IMG/VR virus record: IMGVR_UViG_3300030085_003750
Location: 32,001-96,000 of that record
DNA: 64,000 bases
Strand: one strand, 5' to 3'
Origin: a virus
Every line of letters begins with the position of its first letter. The first letter of the stretch is position 1. The notes below the pieces were generated by a model. It did not search any database. It worked only from the letters and a program-made list of their open reading frames with translations, and was not told where the DNA came from. The position numbers were made by a program, and so were the translations under genes. Of the stretch, positions 25,341 to 46,355 are shown piece after piece.

Positions 25341-25349
25341 ACTATTTAT
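25341..25349 (+). promoter_or_regulatory. Putative phage late promoter (ACTATTTAT)
   Basis: Recurrent intergenic motif. It is followed by hairpin TGAGGGC-ATC-GCCCTCA (25355-25371) and an SD. Confidence 0.55.
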
Positions 25350-25384
25350 CCTTATGAGGGCATCGCCCTCAATAGGAGGATAAT

Positions 25385-25579
25385 ATGATGACAGAACAAG
25401 TAAAGGCATTCGCAGACAAATACGTTGAGAGGTTTATCTCTCGTAAGTTCCTTGCATGGATTGCAGCATCAACACTAGCATTATACGGGGTTCTTTCTTC
25501 TTCGGACTGGACTCAACTTACAATGGTTTATATTGGTTCACAGGCAGCAGTTGACTTAGTTAAGAGTTTGAAGGGATAA
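25385..25579 (+). CDS. Small two-TM membrane protein, holin-like
   Basis: 64 aa with an SRKFL motif, two hydrophobic segments and an AGGAGG SD. Confidence 0.5.
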   Translation: MMTEQVKAFADKYVERFISRKFLAWIAASTLALYGVLSSSDWTQLTMVYIGSQAAVDLVKSLKG

Positions 25580-31859: not shown

Positions 31860-32394
31860 AGAAATTAAAGTACAAGTAGGAGAACCTGAAGACGACAAAA
31901 ATGTTGTATACAACCCAAAGATGAAGATGATACTTCGTAAGACGTTGGGTGGGGATTATGCGATTTACGACCACTACGATATGGATATTGTTATTCAACC
32001 AGAGAAGAAGCAGGTACTTGCGTTTGCCAAGAATGAAATGTCGGATGATGTTTATGCAGCGCAAGATAGGTTGTTTGTCTTCTTACAGAAAAAGGGAGTG
32101 ATACTCCCAGAGACTGTTCAAGGTGGGAATGTTTACGGTTCAATGCAGGGTTCATATCCTGAATCTAAAGTTGGAGCAGATGCTACCGAAGTTGCGCTCT
32201 ATACTATTGGCAAGTTCATCGAAGAAGAAAAACCTTATTATGCCCATGATGATGCTCTTGAAAGCATGATTGCTCAAAAAGAGTTGAATCCAAGTGAAGA
32301 GGACTCAACTAAACTTGGTGAGGTTCCACAAGAAAAGAGCAAAGGAACAGTACCAAAGTATCCAGCAATTAAATCTTATTATAGAATATACTGA
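31852..32394 (+). CDS. Hypothetical protein
   Basis: 180-aa ORF with a GAGGTG SD. Confidence 0.5.
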   Translation: MNEEIKVQVGEPEDDKNVVYNPKMKMILRKTLGGDYAIYDHYDMDIVIQPEKKQVLAFAKNEMSDDVYAAQDRLFVFLQKKGVILPETVQGGNVYGSMQGSYPESKVGADATEVALYTIGKFIEEEKPYYAHDDALESMIAQKELNPSEEDSTKLGEVPQEKSKGTVPKYPAIKSYYRIY

Positions 32395-33895: not shown

Positions 33896-34153
33896 GTGAG
33901 AGACAAAGGTCTATTCGAAGAGAGAATTAGAAAGGGCGAATCTACGGAAGCATTCGTAAGACGAGCACTTCGCAAGTTAAAGAAAGAAGGAGTTATGAAT
34001 GACATTCGTGACCCTTCACGAGGTCATCATCTTTGCAGAGATATTTCAAAGAAATCGCTCCGCAAAAAACACAAAGAGATTCAAGCCGAGCGTCGTCGTT
34101 TCGCAGAGGCAGCGAGAAGAAGAAAACGACAACGACAAAAGCAAAATAGATAA
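33896..34153 (+). CDS. rpsU: Divergent ribosomal protein bS21-like protein
   Basis: 85 aa and very basic. IRKGESTEAFVRRALRKLKKEGVMNDIRD...KKSLRKKHK aligns by eye to the bS21 pattern VR.GES...ALRRFKR...K.G...E.R....KPS..RK.K. Its position after the prohead protease matches described phage bS21 loci. Confidence 0.65.
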   Translation: MRDKGLFEERIRKGESTEAFVRRALRKLKKEGVMNDIRDPSRGHHLCRDISKKSLRKKHKEIQAERRRFAEAARRRKRQRQKQNR

Positions 34154-34964: not shown

Positions 34965-37304
34965 ATGTCTGGAAAATCGTTTAATCGTGCCAGAAGAACT
35001 GGAAAATCTTCCAACTCACTTGCAGTCGTTACAGACGAATTAATACAAGAAGTAGCAATAGCAATAGGACCAGGAGTTCAAGGACCAGCAGGTACGAATG
35101 GACACTCTGCTTATGAAATTGCAGTTATCGAGGGATTCGTTGGCACTCAACAGGAATGGTTAGCATCCTTGGTCGGCGATGACGGAGATACTGCTTTCGA
35201 AATAGCAGTTTCGAACGGGTTCCAGGGCACAGAGGCAGAATGGTTAGCGTCACTCATCGGCGCAGACGGTCCACAGGGCATTCAAGGTCCACAAGGAATT
35301 CAAGGTGACCAAGGTCCAGAAGGTCCAGAAGGTCCACAAGGTATTCAAGGTGACAAAGGAGATACTGGTGACCAAGGTCCACAAGGTATTCAGGGAATTG
35401 AAGGTCCACAAGGTGCTACTGGACCTCAAGGTATTCAAGGCGACAAAGGAGACACAGGTGACCAAGGTCCACAAGGACCACAAGGTATTCAAGGCGATAA
35501 AGGGGACCAAGGCGACACAGGCGACACGGGTGCTACAGGTCCACAAGGAATTGAAGGTCCACAAGGTGCTACTGGACCTCAAGGTCCACAGGGTGATAAA
35601 GGTGATACTGGCGACACAGGTGCCCAAGGACCAGTAGGTCCACAGGGACCGCAAGGCATTCAGGGCATTCAAGGCGATAAGGGCGACACTGGCGACACAG
35701 GTCCACAAGGACCGCAAGGGATTCAAGGTCCAGCAGGAGCAGATGGCGCTACTGGCGCTGACGGAGCGCAAGGAATTCAGGGTCCAACTGGTCCACAAGG
35801 ACCACAAGGTCCACAGGGATTGAAAGGTGACACTGGAGATACAGGTCCACAAGGACCAGAAGGACCAGAAGGTGCTCAAGGTCCACAAGGACCACAAGGT
35901 ATTCAAGGCGACAAAGGAGACACAGGAGACCAAGGTCCACAAGGTCCAGCAGGCGCAGACGGTGACGACGGTGTTGATGGTACTCAAGGTCCAGCAGGTC
36001 CGACAGGTCCAACGGGACCACAAGGACCACAAGGTGTTGCTGGTTCTGGTATAACCATGCAAGGTTCAGTTGCTACAATTAACGACTTACCTACTAATGG
36101 AAATTCACAAGGTGATGCTTATATTGTACAGGCAGATGATTCATTGCATATTTGGAATGGTAGTCAGTGGATTTCTGGCGGTTCAATTCAGGGTCCAGCA
36201 GGACCACAGGGTGCTCAAGGACCACAAGGTTTGACAGGACCACAAGGTCCACAGGGACTCAAGGGCGATACAGGTGACACTGGACCAGCGGGTGCCGACG
36301 GTGCTCAAGGTCCAACTGGTCCACAAGGACCACAAGGACCACAAGGTATTCAAGGCGATAAGGGTGACACTGGAGATACTGGTGCTCAAGGACCACAAGG
36401 TATTCAAGGTCCAGCGGGAAATGATGGAGCAGAAGGTCCAGAAGGTCCACAAGGACCAGCGGGTCCAACTGGCGCTCAAGGTCCAACTGGTGCCCAAGGT
36501 CCAGAGGGACCACAAGGTCCAGCAGGTCAAGACGGTGCTACTGGTGCAGATGGTGCCCAAGGAATCCAGGGTCCAGCAGGTCCACAAGGTCCAGCGGGTG
36601 ATGAAGGCGCACAGGGACCACAAGGAATCCAAGGTCCAGCAGGCGCTGATGGTGCAGAGGGACCACAAGGTCCACCAGGTCAAGACGGCGCTGACGGTGA
36701 TTCTGCTTACGAAATTGCAGTATCTAATGGTTTTTCAGGAACAGAACAGGAATGGTTAGATTCTTTGGAAGGACCAGCAGGACCAGCAACAGTAGCAGAC
36801 GTTCAATCTTATACTGTTACCGCCAACGCAGGGTCGAATGTCTCTGTAACTCTTACTCACAACAAAGGAGATTCAGATTATCTTGTGCAGATTATCGACC
36901 CGAACGGAGACAATCTCGTAGTTCCTTTCACCAGAACAGCAAACACGGTTGTGTTTTACTTTGGAACTGTCTCGAACACAATAGACTATACAGTATTAAT
37001 ATCTGGTGCAAATGGAACAACGATTTCGAATGCTGTTACCGCAGCAACAATAGAAGCAATTGCTGCCGCTTCTGCTTCACTACCAGAAATAAAGTCTTAT
37101 AACTTGACAGTAAATACGGGAACTGGAGTTTTTGCAACTCTTACTCATAACCTTGCAGTTACCAACTCTGACTATGTTGTTCAGATAATTGATTCAAGTA
37201 GAAACAATCTCGTGGTTCCGTTCACGAGAAATCAAAATGACGTAGTGTTTTACTTTGGAAATGTTACAACTCAACAAACTTACAAAGTTGTCATTATTCA
37301 TTAA
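34965..37304 (+). CDS. Collagen-like fibre protein
   Basis: Two long G-X-Y tracts ([12 protein letters not shown]), three SAYEIAV..GF.GT..EWL.SL-type repeats, a central GDAYIV...HIWNGSQW knuckle, and a duplicated C-terminal beta domain (THN...DY.VQIID...LVVPFTR). Confidence 0.9.
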
Positions 37305-37311
37305 AAAATTA

Positions 37312-37488
37312 TTTTTTGCCCCTCTAAATCCTCAAACAACAATCTATTAAAAAACCTTTTCTTTAACCTGATTTTTAGTCTAAGTAGACACAGGTGGGAG
37401 AGGTGTATCCTCTTGTCCATCTTGCTCAAACTTTTATAATGTAGGGTCAAAAATACTCACATGAAAAAACAAATAGGAGGATAAAATT
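37312..37488 (+). promoter_or_regulatory. Structured leader, copy 1 (promoter-like CTAAGTA, two hairpins, SD)
   Basis: Near-duplicate of 40912-41090 at a 3600-bp offset. Hairpins at 37392-37422 and 37439-37462, with compensatory changes between the copies. Confidence 0.75.
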
Positions 37489-40400
37489 TTGAGTAATAGA
37501 ATACAAATTTTAAACGCCACTGCTGACGATTTTGCGATGGAGGTAGTTTCTACCGTTCCTGTGAATGGTTCAGTTGGCGACCATGCAAACGGTCGCTTAG
37601 TAAAGTATGGCACGCACATGTACGTTTGGTGTAATCACCAGGGTATTTGGGCAAAGTTTGCAAACGTAAGCGACTTTACATCACTTGAAACGAGACTTTC
37701 ACAACAAGAAGATGCAAATGATGCTGACGTTTTGTCGCTTGAGGGAATTGATTCTTCACTAGAGACAAGAATATCCGAGGAAGAGTCTGCAATGCTTTCC
37801 GCAATTGCCTCAGAGGAAGCGAGAGCATCATCGCAAGAAGATTCTATTGAAACTAGAATTTCTTCAATGATTTCGGCAAGAGTAGAGGACGTATCTTCCG
37901 AAGCATCTTTGCAAGAAAGTTTAGTTACAAGCGTAAATATTGAAATATCCACAATTATCGCTGCAAGAATTTCAGCAGTTGATTCGCTCGAAGCAAGAGC
38001 AACTGCTGCCGAAACATCTTTGGAATCTAGATTGTCTAATGAGGAAGATGCAAAGGATGCGGGAGATTTGTCTCTTACACAAAGACTTTCTTCCGAAGAA
38101 GCACAAAGACTTGCAAGTGATTCATCTTTGTCTTCCGCTATCGCTGCGGAATCAGGAAGTAGAACATCTGCTGATTCTTCACTTGAAACTGCTATCTCAA
38201 CAGAAGAAGCGAGAATCAGTGCGATTCTTCATGCATCGACAGCAGACAAGGATTCATTTGCGGAGATTGTTACTCACATCAACGCAATTGATTTAGCGCA
38301 TGACACGCAGACTTCGACAGAGATTGCTTCACTTGCAGCGGATATCGCTTCAATGGAATCATCTTTGGAAGGCATTGACAATTCTGTTGAGACAAGATTA
38401 TCTAACGAAGAGGATGAAATGTCTTCAAAGGATTCTTCTCTTGAAGTTAGAATTGCAACAGAAGAGGGCGCTACAGTAACAAGTGATACTTCATTAGCAA
38501 CAAGGTTATCTTCAGAGGAATCGACAAGACTTGCTACTGATAACTCTATTGGAGGTAGACTCGGAACTGATGAATTGGCAAGAGCAAACGCAGATACCTC
38601 ACTTGATACGAGACTATCAAATGAAGAGGACACAATGTCGGCAGGTGACTTGTCACTTGAAACTTTACTTTCGGGAGATAGTGCGGATAAAACATCCGCA
38701 GATTCATCAATCGAAACAAGAATAGCAGATGAAGAGTCAGCAATGCTTTCAGCAGTTGCTTCGGAACAAGCAGAGAGAGTTACCGCTGACAGTTCAGTGG
38801 AATCTCTTGTTTCAACAGAGGAAGTTGCCAGAGAAGATGGCGATGTCTCACTAGAAACTAATATGCAGACAAACGAGACTATTAGAGCACTTGCAGATTC
38901 TTCTTTGGAGTCAAGACTTTCAAACGAAGAAGATAACTTTTCTACGGACAAGAGTTCAATTGAAACACGCCTTTCAATTGAGGAAGATGCAATGTCAGCA
39001 GAAGACTCTTCAGTCGAGACAAGATTCTCAAATGAAATCTCAACAGAGAAATCAAGAATTGACGAAATTCTCGACAGCGCAGACGCTGATAAAGACACTT
39101 TTGTTGAACTTGTCTCTTTCATTACAGAGTTCGATGTAGACGCAGACGACGCTTTGTCATCGTATCAATTGGTTATTGATTCAAGAATTTCAGCAGAAGA
39201 GTCAAACATGTCAGCGGGTGATTCATCGCTTGCAACGGAACTTGCTGCAAAGATTGTTGAAAGACAATCTGCTGTGACTTCACTAGAGAATAAGCACTCA
39301 GGTGAAATTTCGACACTTGGTTCTTCAGTTGATTCACTGGAGACAAGAGAGGAAGCAAGACACCTTAGAGTTGATTTCTCAAACAAGACAAGTTTTACGG
39401 TACTGCAAACTGATTTACCTTCAGGGTTTACTCCTGGCAACGGTTTGGTTCAGATATATCAAGAAGTAAGTTCTAATACTTATAGAAGACTTGTTTCGCC
39501 AATGAATTTTGACCCAACGACGGGCGAAATGACGTTTGATTTGGGTGTATCTGCTAAATCAGGTTTTGCTGTATTCTACTCCTTTGCAGGAGACGAGACA
39601 GACATGTCTTCTTCCAGTGGTCAACAAGCATCACCACCACCTCCAAGTTCTGGTTCAAGTTCTTATCCACAGTTCAAGATTACGGGTGCCAGCGCTTCTT
39701 GGGGTGCAAACGCAGGTGACAGTTCTTCCGTTACAGTTAATGTTACTGGGGTTACAGCGTCTAATGTTGACTCGTTTTTGAATTACACTGGAGATACGTT
39801 CTACTTGTCTGTTTATGGACAAACAACTTATTCATATTATGATATTGCAATTAGTCGCCGAGGAGTATCCTTTGTTTGGGCTTCTGATTATTCTTCATTC
39901 ACGATTAATTATGAGAATTTAAGTAACCAAACTTCGTATAGAACAACTACGACAGCGCCTTCAGGTTCTGCGTATCAAACGTCTCTCCTTTTCGGCACGT
40001 CTGCTGATAGCGCATACTTTAGAGCAACATTATATTTTGACTCAGTGTCGGGCGCACTTGTGCCTTATCCTTCCTCGGCAGGAGAGGTGCTTGATAGTGG
40101 AGACGATATCATTTTATCACCTCCATACATGTCTGGAACTGGAACTGCAACATATACAGCGACCGTTAATCAGGGTTACTATGTCTACCGAGGGGGCAAT
40201 AACTATAAAACCAGAACACTTCGAGGTCCAGAATGGGGATTCGATTTAACCGACTTGACTGGCGACACTGGTGGAAACAGACCAGTAAGAAACTGGTCGT
40301 ACAAGATAGGAGCACACACTACTACAGCAGGTCAGATTCGCTGGGAAGCACAAAATATATTTGACTCTACCACTGACGGCGCTTGGGCAGTTCACGTTAC

Positions 40401-40851
40401 TTCTGGTGGAACAGATTATTATTCAACAGGTTCTGCGATTAGTTCGAGTCATCACTTGTGGTCAGAGATTACTACAAACAGAACTCAATCTAATGTTATT
40501 AACAGATTTAGTGCGAACGTACATGACTCAATTTCGGCTACTGAGACATTGAAGTTAGGATGGTCAGATAGAACAAGTAGTACTCAGGTAAATCCTGATG
40601 CAGATACAATCGTTACAATGTATCTTGCTTCTCACGGTGCAACTGGTCAGCACCTTATTAATGACACGCACTATGCTTCCCCTCATACAACATATAACTG
40701 GGGTGCTAATACAAGTTATGCAACAGATATTAAGATTGTTATTGATACTTCAGACCAGTCTTATGAAATCTACAGGAATTCAAATGTCGGCGGTTCGCCA
40801 ACTTGGGTAGCAGTAGATAGAGCATATTTGTCTAATCAGGAAGTTAATTAA
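37489..40851 (+). CDS. Coiled-coil fibre paralog 1 with long Ser/Thr/Tyr-rich tip domain
   Basis: TTG start after AGGAGG. 18-residue-type repeats (DSSLETRLSNEE), two ADKD(S/T)F.E(I/L)V knuckles, a shared beta domain and a unique ~410-aa C-terminus. Confidence 0.8.
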   Translation: MSNRIQILNATADDFAMEVVSTVPVNGSVGDHANGRLVKYGTHMYVWCNHQGIWAKFANVSDFTSLETRLSQQEDANDADVLSLEGIDSSLETRISEEESAMLSAIASEEARASSQEDSIETRISSMISARVEDVSSEASLQESLVTSVNIEISTIIAARISAVDSLEARATAAETSLESRLSNEEDAKDAGDLSLTQRLSSEEAQRLASDSSLSSAIAAESGSRTSADSSLETAISTEEARISAILHASTADKDSFAEIVTHINAIDLAHDTQTSTEIASLAADIASMESSLEGIDNSVETRLSNEEDEMSSKDSSLEVRIATEEGATVTSDTSLATRLSSEESTRLATDNSIGGRLGTDELARANADTSLDTRLSNEEDTMSAGDLSLETLLSGDSADKTSADSSIETRIADEESAMLSAVASEQAERVTADSSVESLVSTEEVAREDGDVSLETNMQTNETIRALADSSLESRLSNEEDNFSTDKSSIETRLSIEEDAMSAEDSSVETRFSNEISTEKSRIDEILDSADADKDTFVELVSFITEFDVDADDALSSYQLVIDSRISAEESNMSAGDSSLATELAAKIVERQSAVTSLENKHSGEISTLGSSVDSLETREEARHLRVDFSNKTSFTVLQTDLPSGFTPGNGLVQIYQEVSSNTYRRLVSPMNFDPTTGEMTFDLGVSAKSGFAVFYSFAGDETDMSSSSGQQASPPPPSSGSSSYPQFKITGASASWGANAGDSSSVTVNVTGVTASNVDSFLNYTGDTFYLSVYGQTTYSYYDIAISRRGVSFVWASDYSSFTINYENLSNQTSYRTTTTAPSGSAYQTSLLFGTSADSAYFRATLYFDSVSGALVPYPSSAGEVLDSGDDIILSPPYMSGTGTATYTATVNQGYYVYRGGNNYKTRTLRGPEWGFDLTDLTGDTGGNRPVRNWSYKIGAHTTTAGQIRWEAQNIFDSTTDGAWAVHVTSGGTDYYSTGSAISSSHHLWSEITTNRTQSNVINRFSANVHDSISATETLKLGWSDRTSSTQVNPDADTIVTMYLASHGATGQHLINDTHYASPHTTYNWGANTSYATDIKIVIDTSDQSYEIYRNSNVGGSPTWVAVDRAYLSNQEVN

Positions 40852-40874
40852 TCTTACGATTTATTGCCTTTTTC

Positions 40875-40902
40875 GGGGTGCCTTCGGGCACCCCTTTTCT
40901 TT
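40875..40902 (+). terminator. Rho-independent terminator with UUCG loop
   Basis: GGGGTGCC-TTCG-GGCACCCC followed by TTTTCTTT. Confidence 0.85.
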
Positions 40903-40911
40903 AATTAATTT

Positions 40912-41090
40912 TTTTTTGCCCCTCTAAATCTTTAAACAACAATCTCAAAAAAAACCTATTCTTTATCTTTATTTCGAACCTAAATAAAGGCAGGTGGGAG
41001 AGGTTTATTCTCTTGTCCATCTTACTCAAGATTTTATAGTGGAGAGTCAAAAATACTCCCACATTTAACATATTTTAGGAGGATAAAACT
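40912..41090 (+). promoter_or_regulatory. Structured leader, copy 2 (promoter-like CTAAATA, two hairpins, SD)
   Basis: Hairpins at 40992-41022 and 41039-41062; homologous to copy 1. Confidence 0.75.
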
Positions 41091-44039
41091 TTGAGTAGAA
41101 TTAGTATTTTAAACGCTAGTGCAGAAGATTTTGCATTGGAAATTGTTTCATCAGCACCAGTTAATGGTTCTGTTGGAGATAACGAAAACGGTCGTCTTGT
41201 AAAGTACGGCACACACATTTATGTCTGGTGTGACCACCAGGGCATTTGGGCAAAGTTTGCAAATGTAAGTGATTTTACATCACTTGAGACAAGACTTTCC
41301 CAGCAGGAAGACGCAAACGACGCAGACGTTTTGTCACTTGAGGGAATTGATTCTTCATTGGAGTCAAGAATCTCATCAGAAGAAGTTGCTAGAGCATCTG
41401 CTATTACATCAGCAAATGCTAGAGCAGTTGCTATTGAAGGTTCACTTGAGTCTCGCCTCTCAACAGAGGAAGTTGCAAGAGAGGCAGATGTAGACGCAGA
41501 AGAGTCAAGAGCACTTATCGCAGAAGCATCAGTTGACGCAAAACTTTCAACAGCAAAATCTGACAGAATCGCAGCAGTTGATTCACTTCAGACAAGAGCA
41601 GAGGCAGCAGAGACTTCACTTGAGACTAGATTGTCAGTAGAAGAGTTTGCAAACTGGTCTGCTACTTTATATGATGGAACTGTACCTATTTCAGACGAAG
41701 AGTACCTTCGTGGTGCAATGGATTCTGCTATAGCGGCAGATATCGCTTCAGCAACTGCGGATAGAATAGCAGGGGATGCTTCACTTGAAACTGCCATCTC
41801 AACAGAAGAGGCAAGAATCAGTGCAATCCTTCACGCTTCTACAGCAGACAAGGACTCATTCGCAGAGATTGTTACTCACATCAACGCAATTGACTTGGCA
41901 CACGATACACAGACTTCAACAGAGATTGCTTCACTTGCAGCAGACATTGTTTCAATGGAATCATCTTTGGAAGGTATTGACGATTCATTGGAACTTCGAC
42001 TTTCGAACGAAGAAGACGCAATGGCATCAGGCGATGCTTCATTGACAACAAGATTGGCAACTGAAGAGGGTGCAATGGCATCAGGCGATGCTTCATTGAC
42101 AACAAGATTGGCATCAGAAGAATCAGCAAGACTTGCTGCTGATAATTCTCTTGGTGGAAGAATGGGCGTTGAAGAGGTTGCTATGGCATCAGATGATGCA
42201 TCAATCGAATCAAGACTTTCAACAGAGGAAGATGCAATGGCAGCAGGTGACTTGTCACTTGAAACATTGTTGTCTGGCGACGCTTCAGACAGAGCATCTG
42301 ACGATTCATCAATCGAGACAAGAATGTCCGAAGAAGAGTCAGCAATGCTTTCAGCAGTTGCTTCAGAAGAAGCAGAAAGAATTGCTGGAGATGCTTCAAT
42401 TGAGTTATTGATTTCAGCAGAAGAAGTTGCTAGAGCAGCAGCAGACGTTTCGTTGACAACAAGAATGTCAAACGAAGAGGACGCTATGGTTGCAGCAGAT
42501 GCTTCACTCGATTTGAGACTTTCAAGCGAAGAAGCAAACGAAGTAGCAGACAAGGGTTCCCTTGAGACACGTCTTTCAAACGAGGAAGATGCAATGTCAG
42601 CAGGCGACTCTTCAGTCGAGACAAGATTTTCAAATGAGGTCTCAACAGAAAAGTCAAGAATTGATGCAATTCTCGATTCAGCAGACGCTGACAAGGATAC
42701 ATTTGTAGAACTTGTTTCCTTTATTACAGAATTTGACGTAGACGCTGATGACCAGTTGGCATCTTATCAGGTGGTTATTGATTCAAGAATTTCAGCGGAA
42801 GAGTCGAACATGGCAGCAGGTGATGCTTCACTTGAAGCAGAACTTTCTTCAAAGATTGTTGAAAGACAGTCTGCGATTACTTCATTGGAAACAAAGCACT
42901 CTAATGAGATTTCTACACTCGCAGCATCAATTGATTCTGTCGAGGTTAGAGAAGAAAACAGACACCTTAGAGTTGACTTCGGTGGAACAACACCAGTTAC
43001 TTCATTCACAGTATCTGGTTCACAGTTCCCAGCAGGATTTAAGATGGATGAGCATGGTATGGTTCAGGTTTTCCAGGACATGGGAAGCAGTAAGTTCCGT
43101 CACTTGGTTGCACCAGTTGAGATTGACATGTCGTCTGGTAATGTTACAGTTCAACTTGGTTCGACAGCAAAGTCAGGTTTCGCAGTATTCTATATGTTTG
43201 CTGACGATGAAGGCGAGGTGAGTTCACCGAGCACAGCATCTGCTTTCCAACTTGGTGGATACGACGCATCAGAAGTCTATAGTCAGACTTCGCCTACTAC
43301 AGACCAAATTGGTTATACAATTTACATGAAGGATTATGTTAATCTTGACCAGTCTGGATATCCAACGTCAATTCACTCTATGGGTTATGACTTGGGCGCA
43401 GGCGCAGAGACTAAGTGGTATTACAAGCCTGATGGCAACAGCACTTACAGCAGTTACACATACACCTTTCAAGGATATGAAAGTGGATACGGCGGTGATG
43501 ATTTCAGCGCTAGTTCTATGACTGGATTGTCAGAGGGGGCAGAAGTTGCACTTTATGCCGAACTCTACGATGCAAGTGGCAACCTTGTTGCTACTGCTGG
43601 TTCAGCATCTGCTCCATTTTATGTAAATGCTCCAGCGGCATGGACAATGAGTTCGTATGCTTCAGGTATTACAGTATCACCAGGAACAGCAGACCACGGT
43701 CAGACAGTTGACGTAACTGTTACAGTTGACCTTGCAACAGCAAACGTATACAGCAGTTACTTGGAACTTAGTGGAAATAACGATTCTTACAACTACGGTT
43801 GGAATGGATATGACACGATGTGGGTGGCACAGGCATCAAGCGGTTCACCTAGTTCTTACGAGCAGGATTTGATTAATGGTTTCAACAATAATCTTTATAA
43901 TCCAAACAGTTATGCAAGTGCATCGTTCCCGAACAGCACTTTGCCTGCTGCTGGTACTTATAACTTTAATGTTGTCGCTACTAACGGTACTGCTCCGTCG
44001 TCACCGACAACGTTCCAGATTACAATTATTGTAGCATAA
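41091..44039 (+). CDS. Coiled-coil fibre paralog 2 with a different Ig-like, Tyr-rich tip
   Basis: TTG start. Same architecture as paralog 1 with an unrelated ~270-aa C-terminus. Confidence 0.8.
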   Translation: MSRISILNASAEDFALEIVSSAPVNGSVGDNENGRLVKYGTHIYVWCDHQGIWAKFANVSDFTSLETRLSQQEDANDADVLSLEGIDSSLESRISSEEVARASAITSANARAVAIEGSLESRLSTEEVAREADVDAEESRALIAEASVDAKLSTAKSDRIAAVDSLQTRAEAAETSLETRLSVEEFANWSATLYDGTVPISDEEYLRGAMDSAIAADIASATADRIAGDASLETAISTEEARISAILHASTADKDSFAEIVTHINAIDLAHDTQTSTEIASLAADIVSMESSLEGIDDSLELRLSNEEDAMASGDASLTTRLATEEGAMASGDASLTTRLASEESARLAADNSLGGRMGVEEVAMASDDASIESRLSTEEDAMAAGDLSLETLLSGDASDRASDDSSIETRMSEEESAMLSAVASEEAERIAGDASIELLISAEEVARAAADVSLTTRMSNEEDAMVAADASLDLRLSSEEANEVADKGSLETRLSNEEDAMSAGDSSVETRFSNEVSTEKSRIDAILDSADADKDTFVELVSFITEFDVDADDQLASYQVVIDSRISAEESNMAAGDASLEAELSSKIVERQSAITSLETKHSNEISTLAASIDSVEVREENRHLRVDFGGTTPVTSFTVSGSQFPAGFKMDEHGMVQVFQDMGSSKFRHLVAPVEIDMSSGNVTVQLGSTAKSGFAVFYMFADDEGEVSSPSTASAFQLGGYDASEVYSQTSPTTDQIGYTIYMKDYVNLDQSGYPTSIHSMGYDLGAGAETKWYYKPDGNSTYSSYTYTFQGYESGYGGDDFSASSMTGLSEGAEVALYAELYDASGNLVATAGSASAPFYVNAPAAWTMSSYASGITVSPGTADHGQTVDVTVTVDLATANVYSSYLELSGNNDSYNYGWNGYDTMWVAQASSGSPSSYEQDLINGFNNNLYNPNSYASASFPNSTLPAAGTYNFNVVATNGTAPSSPTTFQITIIVA

Positions 44040-44069
44040 AAAATTCAGTTTTTTAACTGATATATTTTA

Positions 44070-44101
44070 GGGGTGGTACCTTCGGGTACCCCCCGCTTTT
44101 T
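44070..44101 (+). terminator. Terminator-like hairpin with UUCG loop
   Basis: GGGG-T-GGTACC-TTCG-GGTACC-CCCC followed by GCTTTTT. Confidence 0.65.
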
Positions 44102-44154
44102 AGCGATTTTTATAATCGCAGTGTTTTTTACATTTAATAGGAGGATAAAAACAC

Positions 44155-46284
44155 ATGAGTAGAATTAGTATTTTAAACGCAAGCGCAAAGGATTTTGCAG
44201 TAGAAGTTGTAAGTTCTTTGCCATCAGGCACATCTCACGAAGATGGTCGCATTGTAAAGGCGATGAATGCACAGAACGAACCAGTACTTTACGTCTGGGA
44301 CGCATCATCACTTTCATGGATTGAATTCGGTAATGCTGCCGACCTTACATCACTTGAAACAAGACTTTCAAGCGAAGAAGTAAGTCAGGATGCTGACGTT
44401 GCTTCACTTGAAGGCATTGATTCATCACTTGAAACAAGAATCTCATCAGAGGAAGATGCTCGTGAAGCAGCAGTTTCAACTGAGAAGGCAAGAGCGGAAG
44501 GCGTAGAGTCTTCACTCGAAACAAGACTTTCAGAAGAAGAAGCGGCAAGAGCAGTTGATGTTGACGCTGAAGAGACAAGAGCAATCGCAGCAGAAGGTTC
44601 ACTTGATACAAAGATTTCTCAGGAAATTGTTGATAGAGAAGCAGACGTTTCATCAGAGGCATCAAGAGCAGAAGCAGCAGAAGACTCAATTGAACTTCGT
44701 CTTTCAAACGAGGAAGTTACAAGAGCAGCGGGCGATGCATCACTTACAACACGCCTTAGCGCAGAAGAAGTTGCAAGAGCAGCAGGCGATTCATCACTTG
44801 AGACACTTCTTTCAACAGAGGTTTCAAATAGAATTGCAGAAGACGGTTCACTTGAGACAGCAATCTCAGTAGAGATGTCGAGAGTAGACGCTATTCTTTC
44901 AGGCGCAGACGCAGACAAGGATTCATTCGCTGAAATCGTTACACTTGTTAACACAATCGACACAGATAACGACAACGCATTGGCAGCAGCAGTTGCTTCA
45001 ATCAACACACTCCGCTCTGACGCTGAGTCATCACTTGAAGCGATTGATACATCACTTGAGACTCGCCTCTCAGGAGAGGAAGTTGCTAGAGCAGCAGGCG
45101 ATTCATCACTTGAGACAAGAGTATCAAACGAGGAAGTTGCTCGTGCAGCAGCAGACGCATCACTCGATACACGTCTTTCAAACGAGGAAGACTCAAGAGC
45201 AGCAGGTGACTCTTCACTTGAGACTCGTCTTTCAAACGAAGAAGTTGCTAGAGCAGACGGTGACTCTTCTCTTACAACACGCCTCGGCGCAGAAGAAGTT
45301 GCTAGAGCAGCAGGTGACTCATCACTCGAATCTGACATCTCAACAGAGAAGGCAGCAAGAGAAGCAGCAGACTCATCACTTGAAACAAGACTTTCAACTG
45401 AAGAGGATGCTAGAGCAGCAGCAGTCTCAACAGAGAAGGCAGCAAGAGAGGCAGCAGACCTTTCACTCGAAACAAGAGTTGGTAATGAAGAGTCAGCACG
45501 TCAGGCAGGCGATGCTTCTTTGACAACAAGACTTTCAAATGAAGAAGTTGCGAGAGCAGCAGCAGATTCATCACTTGAGACAAGACTTTCAAATGAAGAA
45601 GTTGCTAGAGCATCAGACGTTTCATCACTTGAGACTCGTCTTTCAGGCGAAGAGGTTGCTAGAGCGGATGGTGATTCATCACTTGAGACAAGATTCTCAA
45701 ACGAGGTTTCAACAGAGAAGGCAAGAGTTGACGCAATTCTCGCTGGTTCATCTGCTGACAAGGATTCATTTGCAGAAATCGTTGCAGTTATCAACTCACT
45801 TGAGACAGATAACGACAGCAACTTTGCAGCACACGTTCTTTCAGTAACAACAAGAATCTCAGCAGAAGAGGTTGCAAGAGCAGCAGGCGACGCATCACTC
45901 GAAGCAGACATCTCATCAGAGGTTGTTGCTAGAGATGCTGCTATCGCTTCACTTGAGACAAACCACTCAGCGCTCATCGCAGCAGAAGATTCAGCAATCA
46001 ATTCACTTGAGGCAAGAGAGAACAACAGACACAACAAGATTGCGTTCTCAAACGTTGCATCACTTACAGTTGCTGGTTCATCATTCCCATCAGGGTTTGA
46101 CATGACTGACCACGGTATGATTCAGTTGTTCGAAGAAGATGGTTCAGGTAACCTTCACGCTTTGGTTGCTCCAATGGAAATTGACATGACAACAGGTGAT
46201 GTTACTTTCACATTTGAGTCAGCAATCTCAGGTGTTGCAGTCTTCTATTCATTCGCTGATGACGAAGGTACAGTAACAGTATAA
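44155..46284 (+). CDS. Coiled-coil fibre paralog 3, with no tip domain
   Basis: ATG start and the most regular repeats (SLETRLSNEEVARAAGDS). It ends right after the shared beta domain (VFYSFADDEGTVTV). Confidence 0.8.
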   Translation: MSRISILNASAKDFAVEVVSSLPSGTSHEDGRIVKAMNAQNEPVLYVWDASSLSWIEFGNAADLTSLETRLSSEEVSQDADVASLEGIDSSLETRISSEEDAREAAVSTEKARAEGVESSLETRLSEEEAARAVDVDAEETRAIAAEGSLDTKISQEIVDREADVSSEASRAEAAEDSIELRLSNEEVTRAAGDASLTTRLSAEEVARAAGDSSLETLLSTEVSNRIAEDGSLETAISVEMSRVDAILSGADADKDSFAEIVTLVNTIDTDNDNALAAAVASINTLRSDAESSLEAIDTSLETRLSGEEVARAAGDSSLETRVSNEEVARAAADASLDTRLSNEEDSRAAGDSSLETRLSNEEVARADGDSSLTTRLGAEEVARAAGDSSLESDISTEKAAREAADSSLETRLSTEEDARAAAVSTEKAAREAADLSLETRVGNEESARQAGDASLTTRLSNEEVARAAADSSLETRLSNEEVARASDVSSLETRLSGEEVARADGDSSLETRFSNEVSTEKARVDAILAGSSADKDSFAEIVAVINSLETDNDSNFAAHVLSVTTRISAEEVARAAGDASLEADISSEVVARDAAIASLETNHSALIAAEDSAINSLEARENNRHNKIAFSNVASLTVAGSSFPSGFDMTDHGMIQLFEEDGSGNLHALVAPMEIDMTTGDVTFTFESAISGVAVFYSFADDEGTVTV

Positions 46285-46327: not shown

Positions 46328-46355
46328 GGGGGGGGTTTTTACCCCCCTTTTTTTT
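46328..46355 (+). terminator. Rho-independent terminator
   Basis: G8-TTTTTA-C6-T8. Confidence 0.75.

Follow-up and report, generated by a model that had tools for sequence, protein, structure and literature searches.

A Two-Hairpin Leader RNA Preceding Related Fibre Genes of Uncultured Marine T4-Like Phages

In uncultured marine T4-like phages, the members of a fibre-gene family are preceded by a non-coding leader of about 180 bases with two evolutionarily supported RNA hairpins. We analyzed this leader in a 64,000-nucleotide stretch (the window; positions 32,001 to 96,000 of IMG/VR record IMGVR_UViG_3300030085_003750) and in its homologues. The two-hairpin leader is a genuine and new RNA motif, though its kind is familiar. 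As to its role, we prefer, tentatively (probability about 0.4), post-transcriptional cis control of an invariant strong Shine-Dalgarno (SD) sequence coupled to a weak TTG start.

Organization and Conservation of the Leaders

The following features of the window are relevant:

34965–37304, plus strand: collagen-repeat fibre gene upstream of leader copy 1 (Pfam Collagen, 2.5e-66; PHROG tail fibre families)
37305–37488, plus strand: leader copy 1, of the long type (type A) (nhmmer 2.1e-44 to the leader profile; alignments)
37475–37491, plus strand: invariant SD AGGAGG, spacer AUAAAAU and TTG start of paralogue 1
37489–40851, plus strand: fibre paralogue 1, 1120 aa, with a coiled-coil N-terminal part of 710 aa and a divergent C-terminal tip
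40875–40894, plus strand: intrinsic terminator 3' of paralogue 1, GGGGTGCC-TTCG-GGCACCCC followed by a T run
40911–41090, plus strand: leader copy 2, type A (nhmmer 6.3e-52 to the leader profile)
41077–41093, plus strand: SD AGGAGG, spacer and TTG start of paralogue 2
41091–44039, plus strand: fibre paralogue 2, 982 aa; its first 712 aa share 68% identity with paralogue 1

Leader copy 1 begins straight after the stop codon of the collagen-repeat gene, a layout shared by other phages, and no terminator was found between the two in the sequence read. The same terminator as that at 40875–40894 also precedes the second-copy leaders in loci L028 and L037. The 145-kb record contains two leader copies, each ahead of a late fibre gene. 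The preliminary description of this DNA had regarded them as homologous and had noted that both genes start with TTG (37489 and 41091) preceded by AGGAGGATAAAA; the start regions are as it described them, and BLAST aligns the leaders with 80% identity over 190 bases. Identity between paralogues 1 and 2 at fourfold-degenerate sites is 56% overall and 43% across the first 60 codons.

In a survey of 23 metagenome loci, 8 IMG/VR loci and 14 loci reached via protein look-ups, the leader was present ahead of every homologous fibre gene having enough upstream DNA. Identity between copies is 75–89% in the leader versus 47–74% at the fourfold-degenerate sites of the adjacent coding sequences (527 pairs), and leader conservation exceeds that of silent sites even where the fibre N-termini are only about 50% identical. 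The whole leader is thus under purifying selection and is strictly linked to this fibre-gene family. Conservation extends over its first 90 bases, for which no structure is supported, and the block formed by the SD, spacer and TTG has a mean identity of 97%, with TTG in 33/33 copies.

It should be mentioned that there are signs of recombination inside the leader, which had escaped earlier notice. Copy 1 is a mosaic: its 3' half is 88–100% identical to the leaders of L018, L019 and L045a, whereas the best matches of its 5' part are copy 2 and L052 (86%), its identity to those three dropping to 57–64%. The leader of L048 is likewise a hybrid.

Two Hairpins of the Sense-Strand RNA

The hairpins are located as follows:

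37392–37422, plus strand: hairpin 1 of copy 1, 6 + 6 bp with a GU bulge on the 3' side, -14.5 kcal/mol (AGGTGG 37392–37397, GAGAGG 37398–37403, loop TGTAT, CCTCTT 37409–37414, bulge GT, CCATCT 37417–37422)
37439–37462, plus strand: hairpin 2 of copy 1, ATGT-A-GGGT-CAAAAAT-ACTC-ACAT, 4 + 4 bp, -4.1 kcal/mol
40992–41022, plus strand: hairpin 1 of copy 2, -12.7 kcal/mol
41039–41062, plus strand: hairpin 2 of copy 2, GTGG-A-GAGT-CAAAAAT-ACTC-CCAC, -9.3 kcal/mol, z -4.2

These positions, already given in the preliminary description, are exact in both copies, and one G-C pair of hairpin 1 in copy 1 is, as it had stated, a G-U pair in copy 2. It had further read the differences in hairpin 2 as compensatory changes. 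MAFFT run on the two copies alone favours a 2-base indel within hairpin 2, which would undo that reading; an alignment of 33 sequences upholds the ungapped register and with it the compensatory changes.

The covariation sample comprised 33 distinct leader copies from marine metagenomes. Standard pairs occupy 99.8% of the hairpin positions, with six pairs changed on both sides, while only 44–67% of positions are paired in slid controls. All 12 pairs of hairpin 1 are kept throughout (100% paired); two of them show both-side changes, and wobble-preserving single changes occur in addition. Hairpin 2, which has a one-base bulge and a loop of 6–9 bases, is 99.6% paired, with four of its eight pairs changed on both sides and 13 stem haplotypes. 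The number of both-side-changed cells is 37 as against 9.8 +/- 2.5 in shuffles, and none of 500 shuffles reaches 37. Across the hairpins there are 89 G-U cells and not a single A-C cell, so the fold belongs to the sense-strand RNA. When all column pairs were scanned exhaustively, hairpins 1 and 2 proved to be the sole helices with at least two both-side-changed pairs; folding energies of the whole leader are unremarkable (z about -0.8). Covariation in these further homologues, strand-specific G-U pairing and evolution slower than that of silent sites together strongly support the earlier proposal of a selected RNA structure.

Two details of that proposal did not survive the larger sample, namely the invariance of the CAAAAAU loop and of the bulged A in hairpin 2. 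The loop reads C-N(1-4)-AAU in the family (variants are CACGAAU, CAGGAAU, CAAAAU, CCAAAU, CCUAAU, CAAUAAU and AAAAUAAU), and conservation is limited to the closing U-A pair, the AAU on the 3' side and, in most copies, the first C. At the bulge, 28/33 copies have A, 4/33 have C and 1/33 has U, and in L006 and L053b the bulge A pairs with an extra U. It is hairpin 1 that is nearly invariant in sequence among the 33 leaders, which also corrects the first account.

The same data bear on the idea that the region has no RNA function, the similarity of the copies being due to recent duplication, gene conversion or fibre-cassette recombination and the hairpins to chance; in a variant of this idea the region encodes a small antisense protein. 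Signs of recombination within the leader do exist, and an antisense frame beginning MDKRINLSHLP... is open in most copies and is called as a gene in two metagenome contigs. Against this stand the covariation, with its 13 stem haplotypes and lack of A-C pairs, and conservation far above that of silent sites. The antisense frame has no codon periodicity (entropy 0.61, 0.43 and 0.53 at codon positions 1–3), and in 6/33 copies the frame opened by MDK does not continue into NLSHL. An upstream reading frame that begins at the AUG/GUG conserved in hairpin 2 is short and varies in length from 1 to 15 codons. We consider this explanation largely refuted and scarcely tenable.

Comparison With Known RNA Classes

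No Rfam 15 family matched the window at or above its gathering threshold. A permissive scan of 37250–37520 gave only noise: L20_leader on the opposite strand, with 21.5 bits versus a cut-off of 58.7, and two small-RNA families with E above 3. The earlier statement that the leader is not a known riboswitch is borne out by this result and by the presence of only two simple hairpins with evolutionary support, which leaves no aptamer-like multi-helix core. The hairpins are not terminators either, because both lack a U tract directly behind them: the bases after hairpin 1 are UGCUCAAAC, those after hairpin 2 are GAAAAAAC or AUUUAAC, and the terminator scan lists neither of them.

A protein-binding translational operator had been suggested from an invariant loop and an invariant bulged A, and this premise fails, since neither is invariant. 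Phage translational operators include those of T4 genes 43 and 32 and the MS2 and PP7 coat-protein hairpins with a bulged A. The leader resembles them in having, near the translation start of a phage gene, a small hairpin in which one purine is bulged and the loop is partly conserved, and in being conserved in sequence as well as structure. Unlike them, its hairpin 2 neither abuts nor overlaps the SD or the start codon, ending 12 (copy 1) and 14 (copy 2) bases before AGGAGG (10–16 bases across the family); the loop and bulge vary, no candidate repressor was identified, and a larger, nearly invariant second hairpin and 90 conserved bases are added. The RegA family (PF01818) was unmatched in the 80%-complete record and equally in control genomes, so that the search is uninformative on its absence. 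Judged from the C..AAU loop and the almost invariant hairpin 1, an operator role of the leader is possible.

The SD and Its Possible Pairing With Hairpin 1

Hairpin 1 contains a sequence complementary to the SD, a feature not noted before. Its 5' arm (GGGAGAGG) resembles a ribosome-binding site and its 3' arm (CCUCUU) is complementary to one; any strand that complements an SD-like arm will necessarily complement the SD as well. The loop and 3' arm of hairpin 1 are able to pair with the SD in 97.7% of cells versus 51–72% in slid controls, and the predicted minimum-free-energy fold of copy 1 contains exactly this pairing. In some copies the hairpin 1 fold and the SD-paired fold are predicted to be close in energy, and the conserved wobble G100-U116 of hairpin 1 would turn into an A-U pair in the alternative fold. 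Covariation cannot back either SD pairing because the SD is invariant, and the predicted partners of the SD vary from sequence to sequence. Pairing of the upstream pyrimidine tract with the 5' arm of hairpin 1, which is needed to free the 3' arm, is compatible in only 79.8%, and its central pair is mismatched in 30/33 copies.

From these features the following scheme can be proposed. The leader, transcribed in the sense direction as part of the fibre mRNA, would fold into the two hairpins and act in cis; copy 1 would be an intercistronic region of a long structural-gene transcript, and copy 2 would be reached past a leaky terminator. It would most likely set the amount of fibre protein through access to the SD with its weak TTG. 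With hairpin 1 closed, the SD-complementary strand CCUCUU would be locked away by the GGGAGAGG arm and the real SD would be free. Opening of hairpin 1, by a bound factor or by competing upstream pyrimidine tracts, would allow its loop and 3' arm to pair with the SD over 9 bases. Hairpin 2, lying 10–16 bases 5' of the SD and bearing the semi-conserved C..AAU loop, is a candidate protein-binding or 5'-protecting element. The translational effect, and the existence of any trans-acting factor, we infer.

Switches that sequester the SD, such as riboswitch expression platforms and RNA thermometers, offer a parallel, in that CCUCUU has two possible partners, the real SD and the SD-like decoy in hairpin 1. 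They differ from the leader, which has no ligand-binding core and no covariation for an alternative fold, and in which the helix that would open hairpin 1 is poorly conserved.

The third fibre gene of the window has a leader of another kind:

44070–44154, plus strand: short leader ("type B"), one of 11 distinct type B leaders, window included
about 44070–44094, plus strand: terminator-like hairpin of the type B leader
44103–44119, plus strand: small variable hairpin of the type B leader
44121–44128 and 44147–44154, plus strand: type B stem GUGUUUUU/AAAAACAC, with the SD (44139–44144) in its loop, just before the ATG
44155–46284, plus strand: third fibre paralogue, 709 aa, ATG start, with the same SD as paralogues 1 and 2

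Hairpins 1 and 2 are absent ahead of this gene, and the occurrence of the same SD without them counts against the translational reading. In T4, start regions of the gene 38 and gene 25 type have a stem that presents the SD beside the start codon. The type B stem is similar in holding the SD in its loop and ending at the ATG; this likeness concerns the short leader of the third paralogue and not the two-hairpin leader.

Possible Processing or Antitermination Roles

The arrangement of the hairpins also suggests an intercistronic processing or stability element. A host endonuclease would cut the invariant AU-rich linker UUUUAUA between the hairpins, leaving hairpin 1 to shield the upstream message at its 3' end and hairpin 2 to shield the fibre message at its 5' end, which would uncouple the amounts of neighbouring cistrons. 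AU-rich single strands beside stem-loops are typical RNase E-type sites, and here two supported hairpins flank the invariant single-stranded UUUUAUA. Copy 1 lies between two cistrons without a terminator, and hairpin 2 is purely structural and freely covarying, as a protective hairpin should be. Yet this explanation, to which we give a small chance, does not account for the conservation of the first 90 bases or for the near-invariant arms of hairpin 1, and some copies of hairpin 2 are weak (-4.1 kcal/mol).

RNA-only antiterminators that permit long operons with internal terminators are documented (PMC11658703), and a processive antitermination RNA of the HK022 put or EAR type would consist of nascent hairpins that bind their own RNA polymerase and carry it past the fibre-gene terminators. 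In the window two sense-strand hairpins do stand upstream of genes with a strong terminator behind each, and three intrinsic terminators lie downstream of leaders in the terminator scan:

40875–40894, plus strand: terminator 3' of paralogue 1
about 44070–44094, plus strand: terminator-like hairpin of the type B leader
46328–46349: further intrinsic terminator

Like HK022 put and the Bacillus EAR element (PMC11658703), the leader is a structured nascent RNA upstream of intrinsic terminators of the same unit. No canonical promoter motif precedes the second or the third paralogue, and high sequence conservation would suit binding to a conserved polymerase surface. The leader nevertheless resembles no known antiterminator in sequence or by model comparison and has no Rfam match, and the logic of the arrangement is weaker in its case: an unconditional antiterminator would make the terminators pointless, because the leader has by then been transcribed by every polymerase that arrives at them. 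In put the two stems follow each other almost without a gap, while hairpins 1 and 2 sit 16 bases apart. We regard antitermination as very unlikely.

A Promoter-Like Match Overlapping Both Hairpins

A further feature missed by the preliminary description is a promoter-like sequence, TTGTCC-16-TATA(A/G)T, that overlaps both hairpins:

37413–37440, plus strand: sigma-70-like match TTGTCC-16-TATAAT, overlapping the 3' arm of hairpin 1 and the 5' arm of hairpin 2

Of the two boxes, the -35-like one falls within the first hairpin's 3' arm, and the -10-like one takes in the start of the second hairpin's 5' arm. In the promoter scan the version with TATAAT matches the consensus at 10/12 positions and that with TATAGT at 9/12. 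TATA(A/G)T is invariant in 33/33 leaders, and the -35-like TTG is changed to TCG (TCGTCC) in 3/33 copies; the spacer is 15 in 3/33.

Such an organization recalls the PeSL (promoter-early stem-loop) cassettes of T4-type phages. These have an AT-rich part upstream, a strong sigma-70-like promoter (spacing 16–18) whose -35 or -10 box is overlapped by stem-loops, and an SD with the start codon at the end, and they mediate recombination (PMC2839356, PMC4122927). The leader is similarly a repeated intergenic module of roughly 100–200 bp in a T4-like genome, AT-rich upstream, with a sigma-70-like -35/-10 match, overlapping stem-loops whose arms are G-rich and C-rich (G-T pairs included), and an SD and start at its end. 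It also adjoins the most plastic genes and bears internal signs of recombination. It could accordingly be read as a composite promoter/stem-loop cassette: TTGTCC-16-TATA(A/G)T would be a real sigma-70-type promoter providing each fibre gene with its own transcript, which would start near the hairpin 2 loop, so that the hairpins would act only on RNA coming from upstream, and the conserved cassette would double as a homology patch for the swapping of fibre modules.

We give this reading a modest chance of being right. Besides the scan scores and the mosaic structure of the leader, it is favoured by the agreement of the -10 box with the TTATAGT/TTATAAT of the clear early promoters of this phage (73977, 80564, 90202 and 105621), by the fact that the sole variable base of TATA(A/G)T sits where a -10 box is least constrained, and by the location of copy 2 just past a strong terminator and without the canonical phage promoter motif. 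Two observations that fit a promoter count at the same time against the preferred translational reading: TATA(A/G)T is invariant within a covarying stem, and the G of the -35-like TTG falls on the GU bulge of hairpin 1, which is unpaired and invariant. Against that reading stand also the conserved unstructured first 90 bases, which look more like DNA-level signals.

The covariation and G-U pairs show, on the other side, that RNA across both hairpins is made and selected, and therefore a transcript must start upstream of the putative promoter. The -35 box is weak and not strictly kept, its change from TTG to TCG in three lineages being in the direction that improves hairpin 1 pairing, and the spacer is of 16 bases, or 15 in three copies. 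Type B leaders need a promoter just as much, yet they lack a conserved -10 box. Moreover, the leader has no sequence homology to PeSLs; its stem-loops, unlike theirs, have no U tract behind them and are not terminators; and it is tied to one late structural gene family with just two copies per genome, not to many early orphan genes of hyperplastic regions.

Neither TTGTCC nor GTCCATCT together with a -10 box was found before other genes of the 145-kb record: other TTGTCC matches are on the minus strand only, and GTCCATCT occurs elsewhere without a -10 box. The phage's own promoter motif, (A)CTA[T/A/C]TTA(T), is about 16-fold enriched upstream of genes. The leaders do not have it as an exact heptamer 24–76 bases before the start codon with A before and T after it; in its place they carry CTA-R-R-TA, which never has the canonical T at position 5 and is flanked by C or T before and by A, G or T after.

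Two leader copies in the fibre locus

Reading of the window sequence confirmed all coordinates of the preliminary description, which had placed homologous non-coding leaders of about 180 bases upstream of fibre paralogues 1 (37489–40851) and 2 (41091–44039). Each of these long (type A) leaders contains two hairpins:

37392–37422, plus strand: hairpin 1 of leader copy 1
37439–37462, plus strand: hairpin 2 of leader copy 1
40992–41022, plus strand: hairpin 1 of leader copy 2
41039–41062, plus strand: hairpin 2 of leader copy 2

Both fibre genes indeed begin with TTG (37489 and 41091), and each start is preceded by AGGAGGATAAAA. Leader copy 1 is located directly after the stop codon of the collagen-repeat fibre gene with no intervening terminator, and copy 2 lies downstream of a strong terminator (40875–40894).

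The two copies are 80% identical over 190 bases, and the proteins of paralogues 1 and 2 are 68% identical in their first 712 residues. Identity at the fourfold-degenerate sites of the two genes is 56% overall and falls to 43% over the initial 60 codons; thus, the non-coding leader is conserved above the adjacent neutral sites. It should be mentioned that a MAFFT alignment of the two copies put a 2-base indel inside hairpin 2, so that compensatory changes read from these copies alone depend on the alignment.

Distribution of the leader

The parent of the window is a 145-kb IMG/VR virus record with a G+C content of about 40%. The DNA pattern of hairpin 1 revealed eight IMG/VR contigs, the fibre N-terminal protein as sole guide revealed 23 metagenome loci, and eight protein look-ups added 14 further loci. 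A leader sequence profile matched at every locus with sufficient upstream DNA, and twice in phages having two long-leader fibre genes. In total, 34 distinct leaders were obtained, 33 of which were aligned (alignment A4). Looser DNA patterns searched against IMG/VR returned only the eight known contigs and chance matches, and no new locus fitted the leader profile.

The related loci carry a T4-type head module (portal, gp21 protease, gp23 and gp13 families). The closest cultured capsid proteins are those of Flavobacterium phage immuto and Microcystis phage Mel-JY01 (about 47% identity), and the identity to the capsid protein of Rhodothermus phage RM378 is 41%. Known phage records contained no DNA match to the leader or the surrounding 20 kb, the fibre family was not found in any cultured-phage record, and bacterial and archaeal genomes revealed no relative of the fibre N-terminus. 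All leaders known so far come from a single clade of uncultured marine T4-like phages. Four metagenome or IMG/VR contigs (L004, L020, L032 and L036) terminate within the leader; its repetition and the conservation of the fibre N-terminus probably disrupt assembly at this point.

Two conserved hairpins in the mRNA

In A4, 99.8% of the 644 cells of hairpins 1 and 2 are paired, and pairing falls to 44–67% when the partner is slid by 1–3 columns. Six pairs change on both sides. Altogether 37 cells are changed in this way, as compared to 9.8 ± 2.5 in column shuffles, none of which (0 of 500) reached 37. The selected RNA structure proposed from the two window copies is therefore upheld by covariation in additional homologues. 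Moreover, the hairpins contain 89 G-U cells and no A-C cell, which places the fold on the sense strand, i.e., in the mRNA. The leader is thus a sense-strand RNA with two conserved hairpins.

Hairpin 2 occurs as 13 stem haplotypes, and at its pair 144/163 CG, GC, UA, AU and GU are all found. The G-U to A-U change singled out in the preliminary description does occur, as one among many. Two other features of this hairpin turned out to be less constant than was thought: the supposedly invariant loop reads C-N(1-4)-AAU across the copies, and the bulged A is replaced by C in four copies and by U in one (A in 28). The sequence of hairpin 1 is near-invariant, and pairing is kept at its variable positions (A-U to G-C in contig L040, G-C to A-U in contig L041, G-U to G-C in three lineages, and several changes of G-C to G-U).

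An exhaustive scan of all column pairs revealed no other helix with at least two both-side-changing pairs. RNAalifold made one addition only, a long-range pairing between a pyrimidine tract and the ribosome-binding site (SD), which shows no covariation. The thermodynamic stability of the whole leader is not unusual (z about -0.8). A third small hairpin at CTAAATA, just 5' of hairpin 1, was rejected, as it does not keep a constant register among the sequences and some of them lack it.

No Rfam family matches the leader. This result and the lack of a multi-helix core agree with the earlier opinion that it is no known riboswitch; lacking such a core, the element is not a riboswitch, nor is it a terminator. 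It is a new RNA motif supported by covariation and belongs to a familiar category, the structured leaders of phage mRNAs. New leader motifs are not rare; what this one contributes to RNA biology is a motif backed by covariation, from a clade of uncultured marine phages.

The third paralogue and the organization of the locus

The third fibre paralogue (44155–46284) has an ATG start, the same SD as paralogues 1 and 2, and a different, short leader (type B) that is conserved across phages. Type B leaders were found in the window and in the following related phage contigs:

44070–44154: leader of the third paralogue in the window
L005:11408–11559: type B leader
L006:7804–7955, minus strand: type B leader
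L009:10448–10599: type B leader
L041, L043, L045, L050, L052 and L053: further contigs with type B leaders

The layout conserved across phages begins with a strong terminator, continues with a small hairpin and is completed by a stem of 8 bp, GUGUUUUU/AAAAACAC. The stem of the small hairpin varies by phage (GCGAT/ATCGC, AGTGCT/AGCACT or GGTGCT/AGCAC), while the 8-bp stem carries the SD in its loop and extends as far as the ATG.

The region 34965–46284 comprises the collagen-repeat fibre gene and the three coiled-coil fibre paralogues, located between gp21 protease/scaffold-like genes and the gp23 capsid gene. This is an unusual placement of fibre genes in a T4-type head module, and the products may be head or neck fibres. 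None of the three paralogues matched Pfam; paralogues 1 and 2 matched no PHROG family, and the third gave one weak match, to a family of unknown function. An 85-residue ORF (33896–34153) between the protease and the scaffold-like gene keeps its position in all related loci; it gave no Pfam hit with E values of up to 0.01.

Selection and recombination

Among 527 sequence pairs, the leader copies are 75–89% identical, as compared to 47–74% at fourfold-degenerate sites of the first 100 downstream codons. Conservation extends to the first 90 bases of the leader, where no structure is supported. The whole leader is under strong purifying selection.

Gene callers place an antisense ORF of 56–75 residues within the leader (40901–41071, minus strand; L051:2536–2763 and L052:2665–2835 in public metagenome contigs). 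Codon periodicity is absent from this ORF, and in 6 of the 33 copies its MDK-start frame does not continue into NLSHL; therefore, it is probably a false gene call. A short upstream frame beginning at the conserved AUG/GUG of hairpin 2 was likewise rejected, having 1–15 codons, an unconserved peptide and no preceding SD. That the leader has no RNA function, or reflects an antisense gene, is scarcely credible: this reading is largely refuted by the covariation, the absence of codon periodicity in the antisense frame, the conservation of the leader relative to silent sites and the variable upstream frame.

The leader is also a mosaic. In its linker, hairpin 2 and 3' flank, copy 1 is 88–100% identical to the related leaders L018, L019 and L045a, whereas its 5' part is only 57–64% identical to them and most resembles L052 and the genome's own copy 2 (86%). 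A hybrid was found at L048:4658–4878, with a long-type 5' half and a short-type 3' end preceding an ATG-start paralogue. It contains a diverged hairpin 1 region (AGGCGGGAAAGG...) followed by other GC-rich hairpins. Read by eye only, the outer U-A pair of this copy has apparently become C-G, with pairing possibly kept; an energy fold of the stretch did not return hairpin 1. The conserved leader module looks like a ready-made junction for the exchange of fibre cassettes among phages.

Possible control of fibre translation

The leader is strictly linked to one gene family, in which the strong SD and the weak TTG start are both invariant. We infer, tentatively and with a probability of about 0.4, that it exerts post-transcriptional control in cis over this SD/TTG start site. 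In hairpin 1, an SD-like strand (GGGAGAGG) is paired with the complementary strand CCUCUU, which together with the hairpin loop could pair with the real SD instead, over 9 bases. The loop and 3' strand are able to pair with the SD in 97.7% of cells (51–72% in slid controls), and minimum-energy folding of copy 1 yields this alternative. Covariation with the SD is impossible since the SD is invariant, and the predicted SD partners are inconsistent from sequence to sequence.

Two further observations count against control of the start site by these hairpins. The helix needed to open hairpin 1 is poorly conserved, which is a weakness of the switch model, and the third paralogue works without hairpins 1 and 2. 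Pairing of the pyrimidine tract with the 5' arm of hairpin 1 was rejected as a trigger of the switch, being just 79.8% compatible. A search for a RegA-like repressor gave no match, and the same search gave nothing in control genomes either.

Tail or head fibres determine the hosts to which a phage can attach, and these phages have two or three fibre genes with differing tips. A dedicated and strongly conserved fibre leader suggests that the amount of each fibre is controlled at a level not studied so far. It seems very unlikely that the leader determines in what proportion alternative receptor-binding fibres are produced for one virion. This might be achieved by a switch, hairpin 1 mimicking the duplex of the SD with the ribosomal anti-SD and being read by the ribosome or a phage protein, or in a put-like manner, the two hairpins making the polymerase resistant to terminators between fibre genes. 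If true, either form would mean that late genes of T4-like phages are subject to RNA control of a new class. Antitermination RNAs of the put or EAR type have been described (PMC11658703), and we consider it highly improbable that the leader is simply one of them. The invariant UUUUAUA linker might alternatively contain a processing and stability site, which we regard as quite unlikely.

Promoter motifs in the leader and in the genome

In the leaders, TTGTCC-16-TATA(A/G)T overlaps the 3' arm of hairpin 1 and the 5' arm of hairpin 2. A promoter would agree with the invariance of TATA(A/G)T, which holds even though the motif is partly within a covarying stem, and with that of the unpaired GU bulge of hairpin 1; however, TTG is changed to TCG in three lineages, in the direction of better RNA pairing, and three copies have a 15-base spacer. 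The leader might then be a promoter/stem-loop cassette similar to the promoter-early stem-loops (PeSLs) of T4-type phages, some of whose features it has while lacking others. The architecture and the recombination signal match (PMC2839356, PMC4122927), but copy number, gene class and terminator function do not, and a cassette of this type leaves unexplained why RNA starting upstream of the promoter is under selection; we regard this reading as rather unlikely. A conserved -10 box shared with the type B leader was rejected, TATAAT being present in 3 of 11 type B leaders (window, L041 and L045) and not conserved in the others, as was a promoter class with an activator box (GTCCATCTT) and a -10 box, no other instance of which was found in the genome.

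The motif (A)CTA[T/A/C]TTA(T) occurs in sense orientation 24–76 bases before gene starts, with an enrichment of about 16-fold in these upstream regions, and is probably the phage's own promoter. This canonical motif is absent from the fibre leaders. Clear sigma-70-type promoters are also present elsewhere in the genome, and the fibre leaders do not have their canonical form. The sites are as follows (window numbering):

25342, 34154, 46391, 52137, 59927, 83109, 94989 and 103359: examples of CTA[T/A/C]TTA, usually (A)ACTATTTAT
73977, 80564, 90202 and 105621 (the last is record position 137621, beyond the window): textbook sigma-70 promoters, TTGACA, about 17 bases, TATAGT/TATAAT, some with an upstream TG

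The four sigma-70 promoters are clustered in an apparent early region. Together with the widespread ribosome-binding sites, such promoters argue against a Bacteroidota host, despite the nearest capsid being that of a Flavobacterium phage.

One copy of CTA[T/A/C]TTA is located 9 bases before an apparent tRNA gene, recognized by eye, at about position 144871 of the record, beyond the end of the window. Hairpins at the 5' end following the motif were rejected as a general feature, being present at just 2–3 of 21 sites. At 25342–25387, a strong 5' hairpin (UGAGGGCAUCGCCCUCA; leader -16.8 kcal/mol) lies downstream of CTATTTA, together with an extended ribosome-binding site, AGGAGGATAA, identical to that of the fibre genes.
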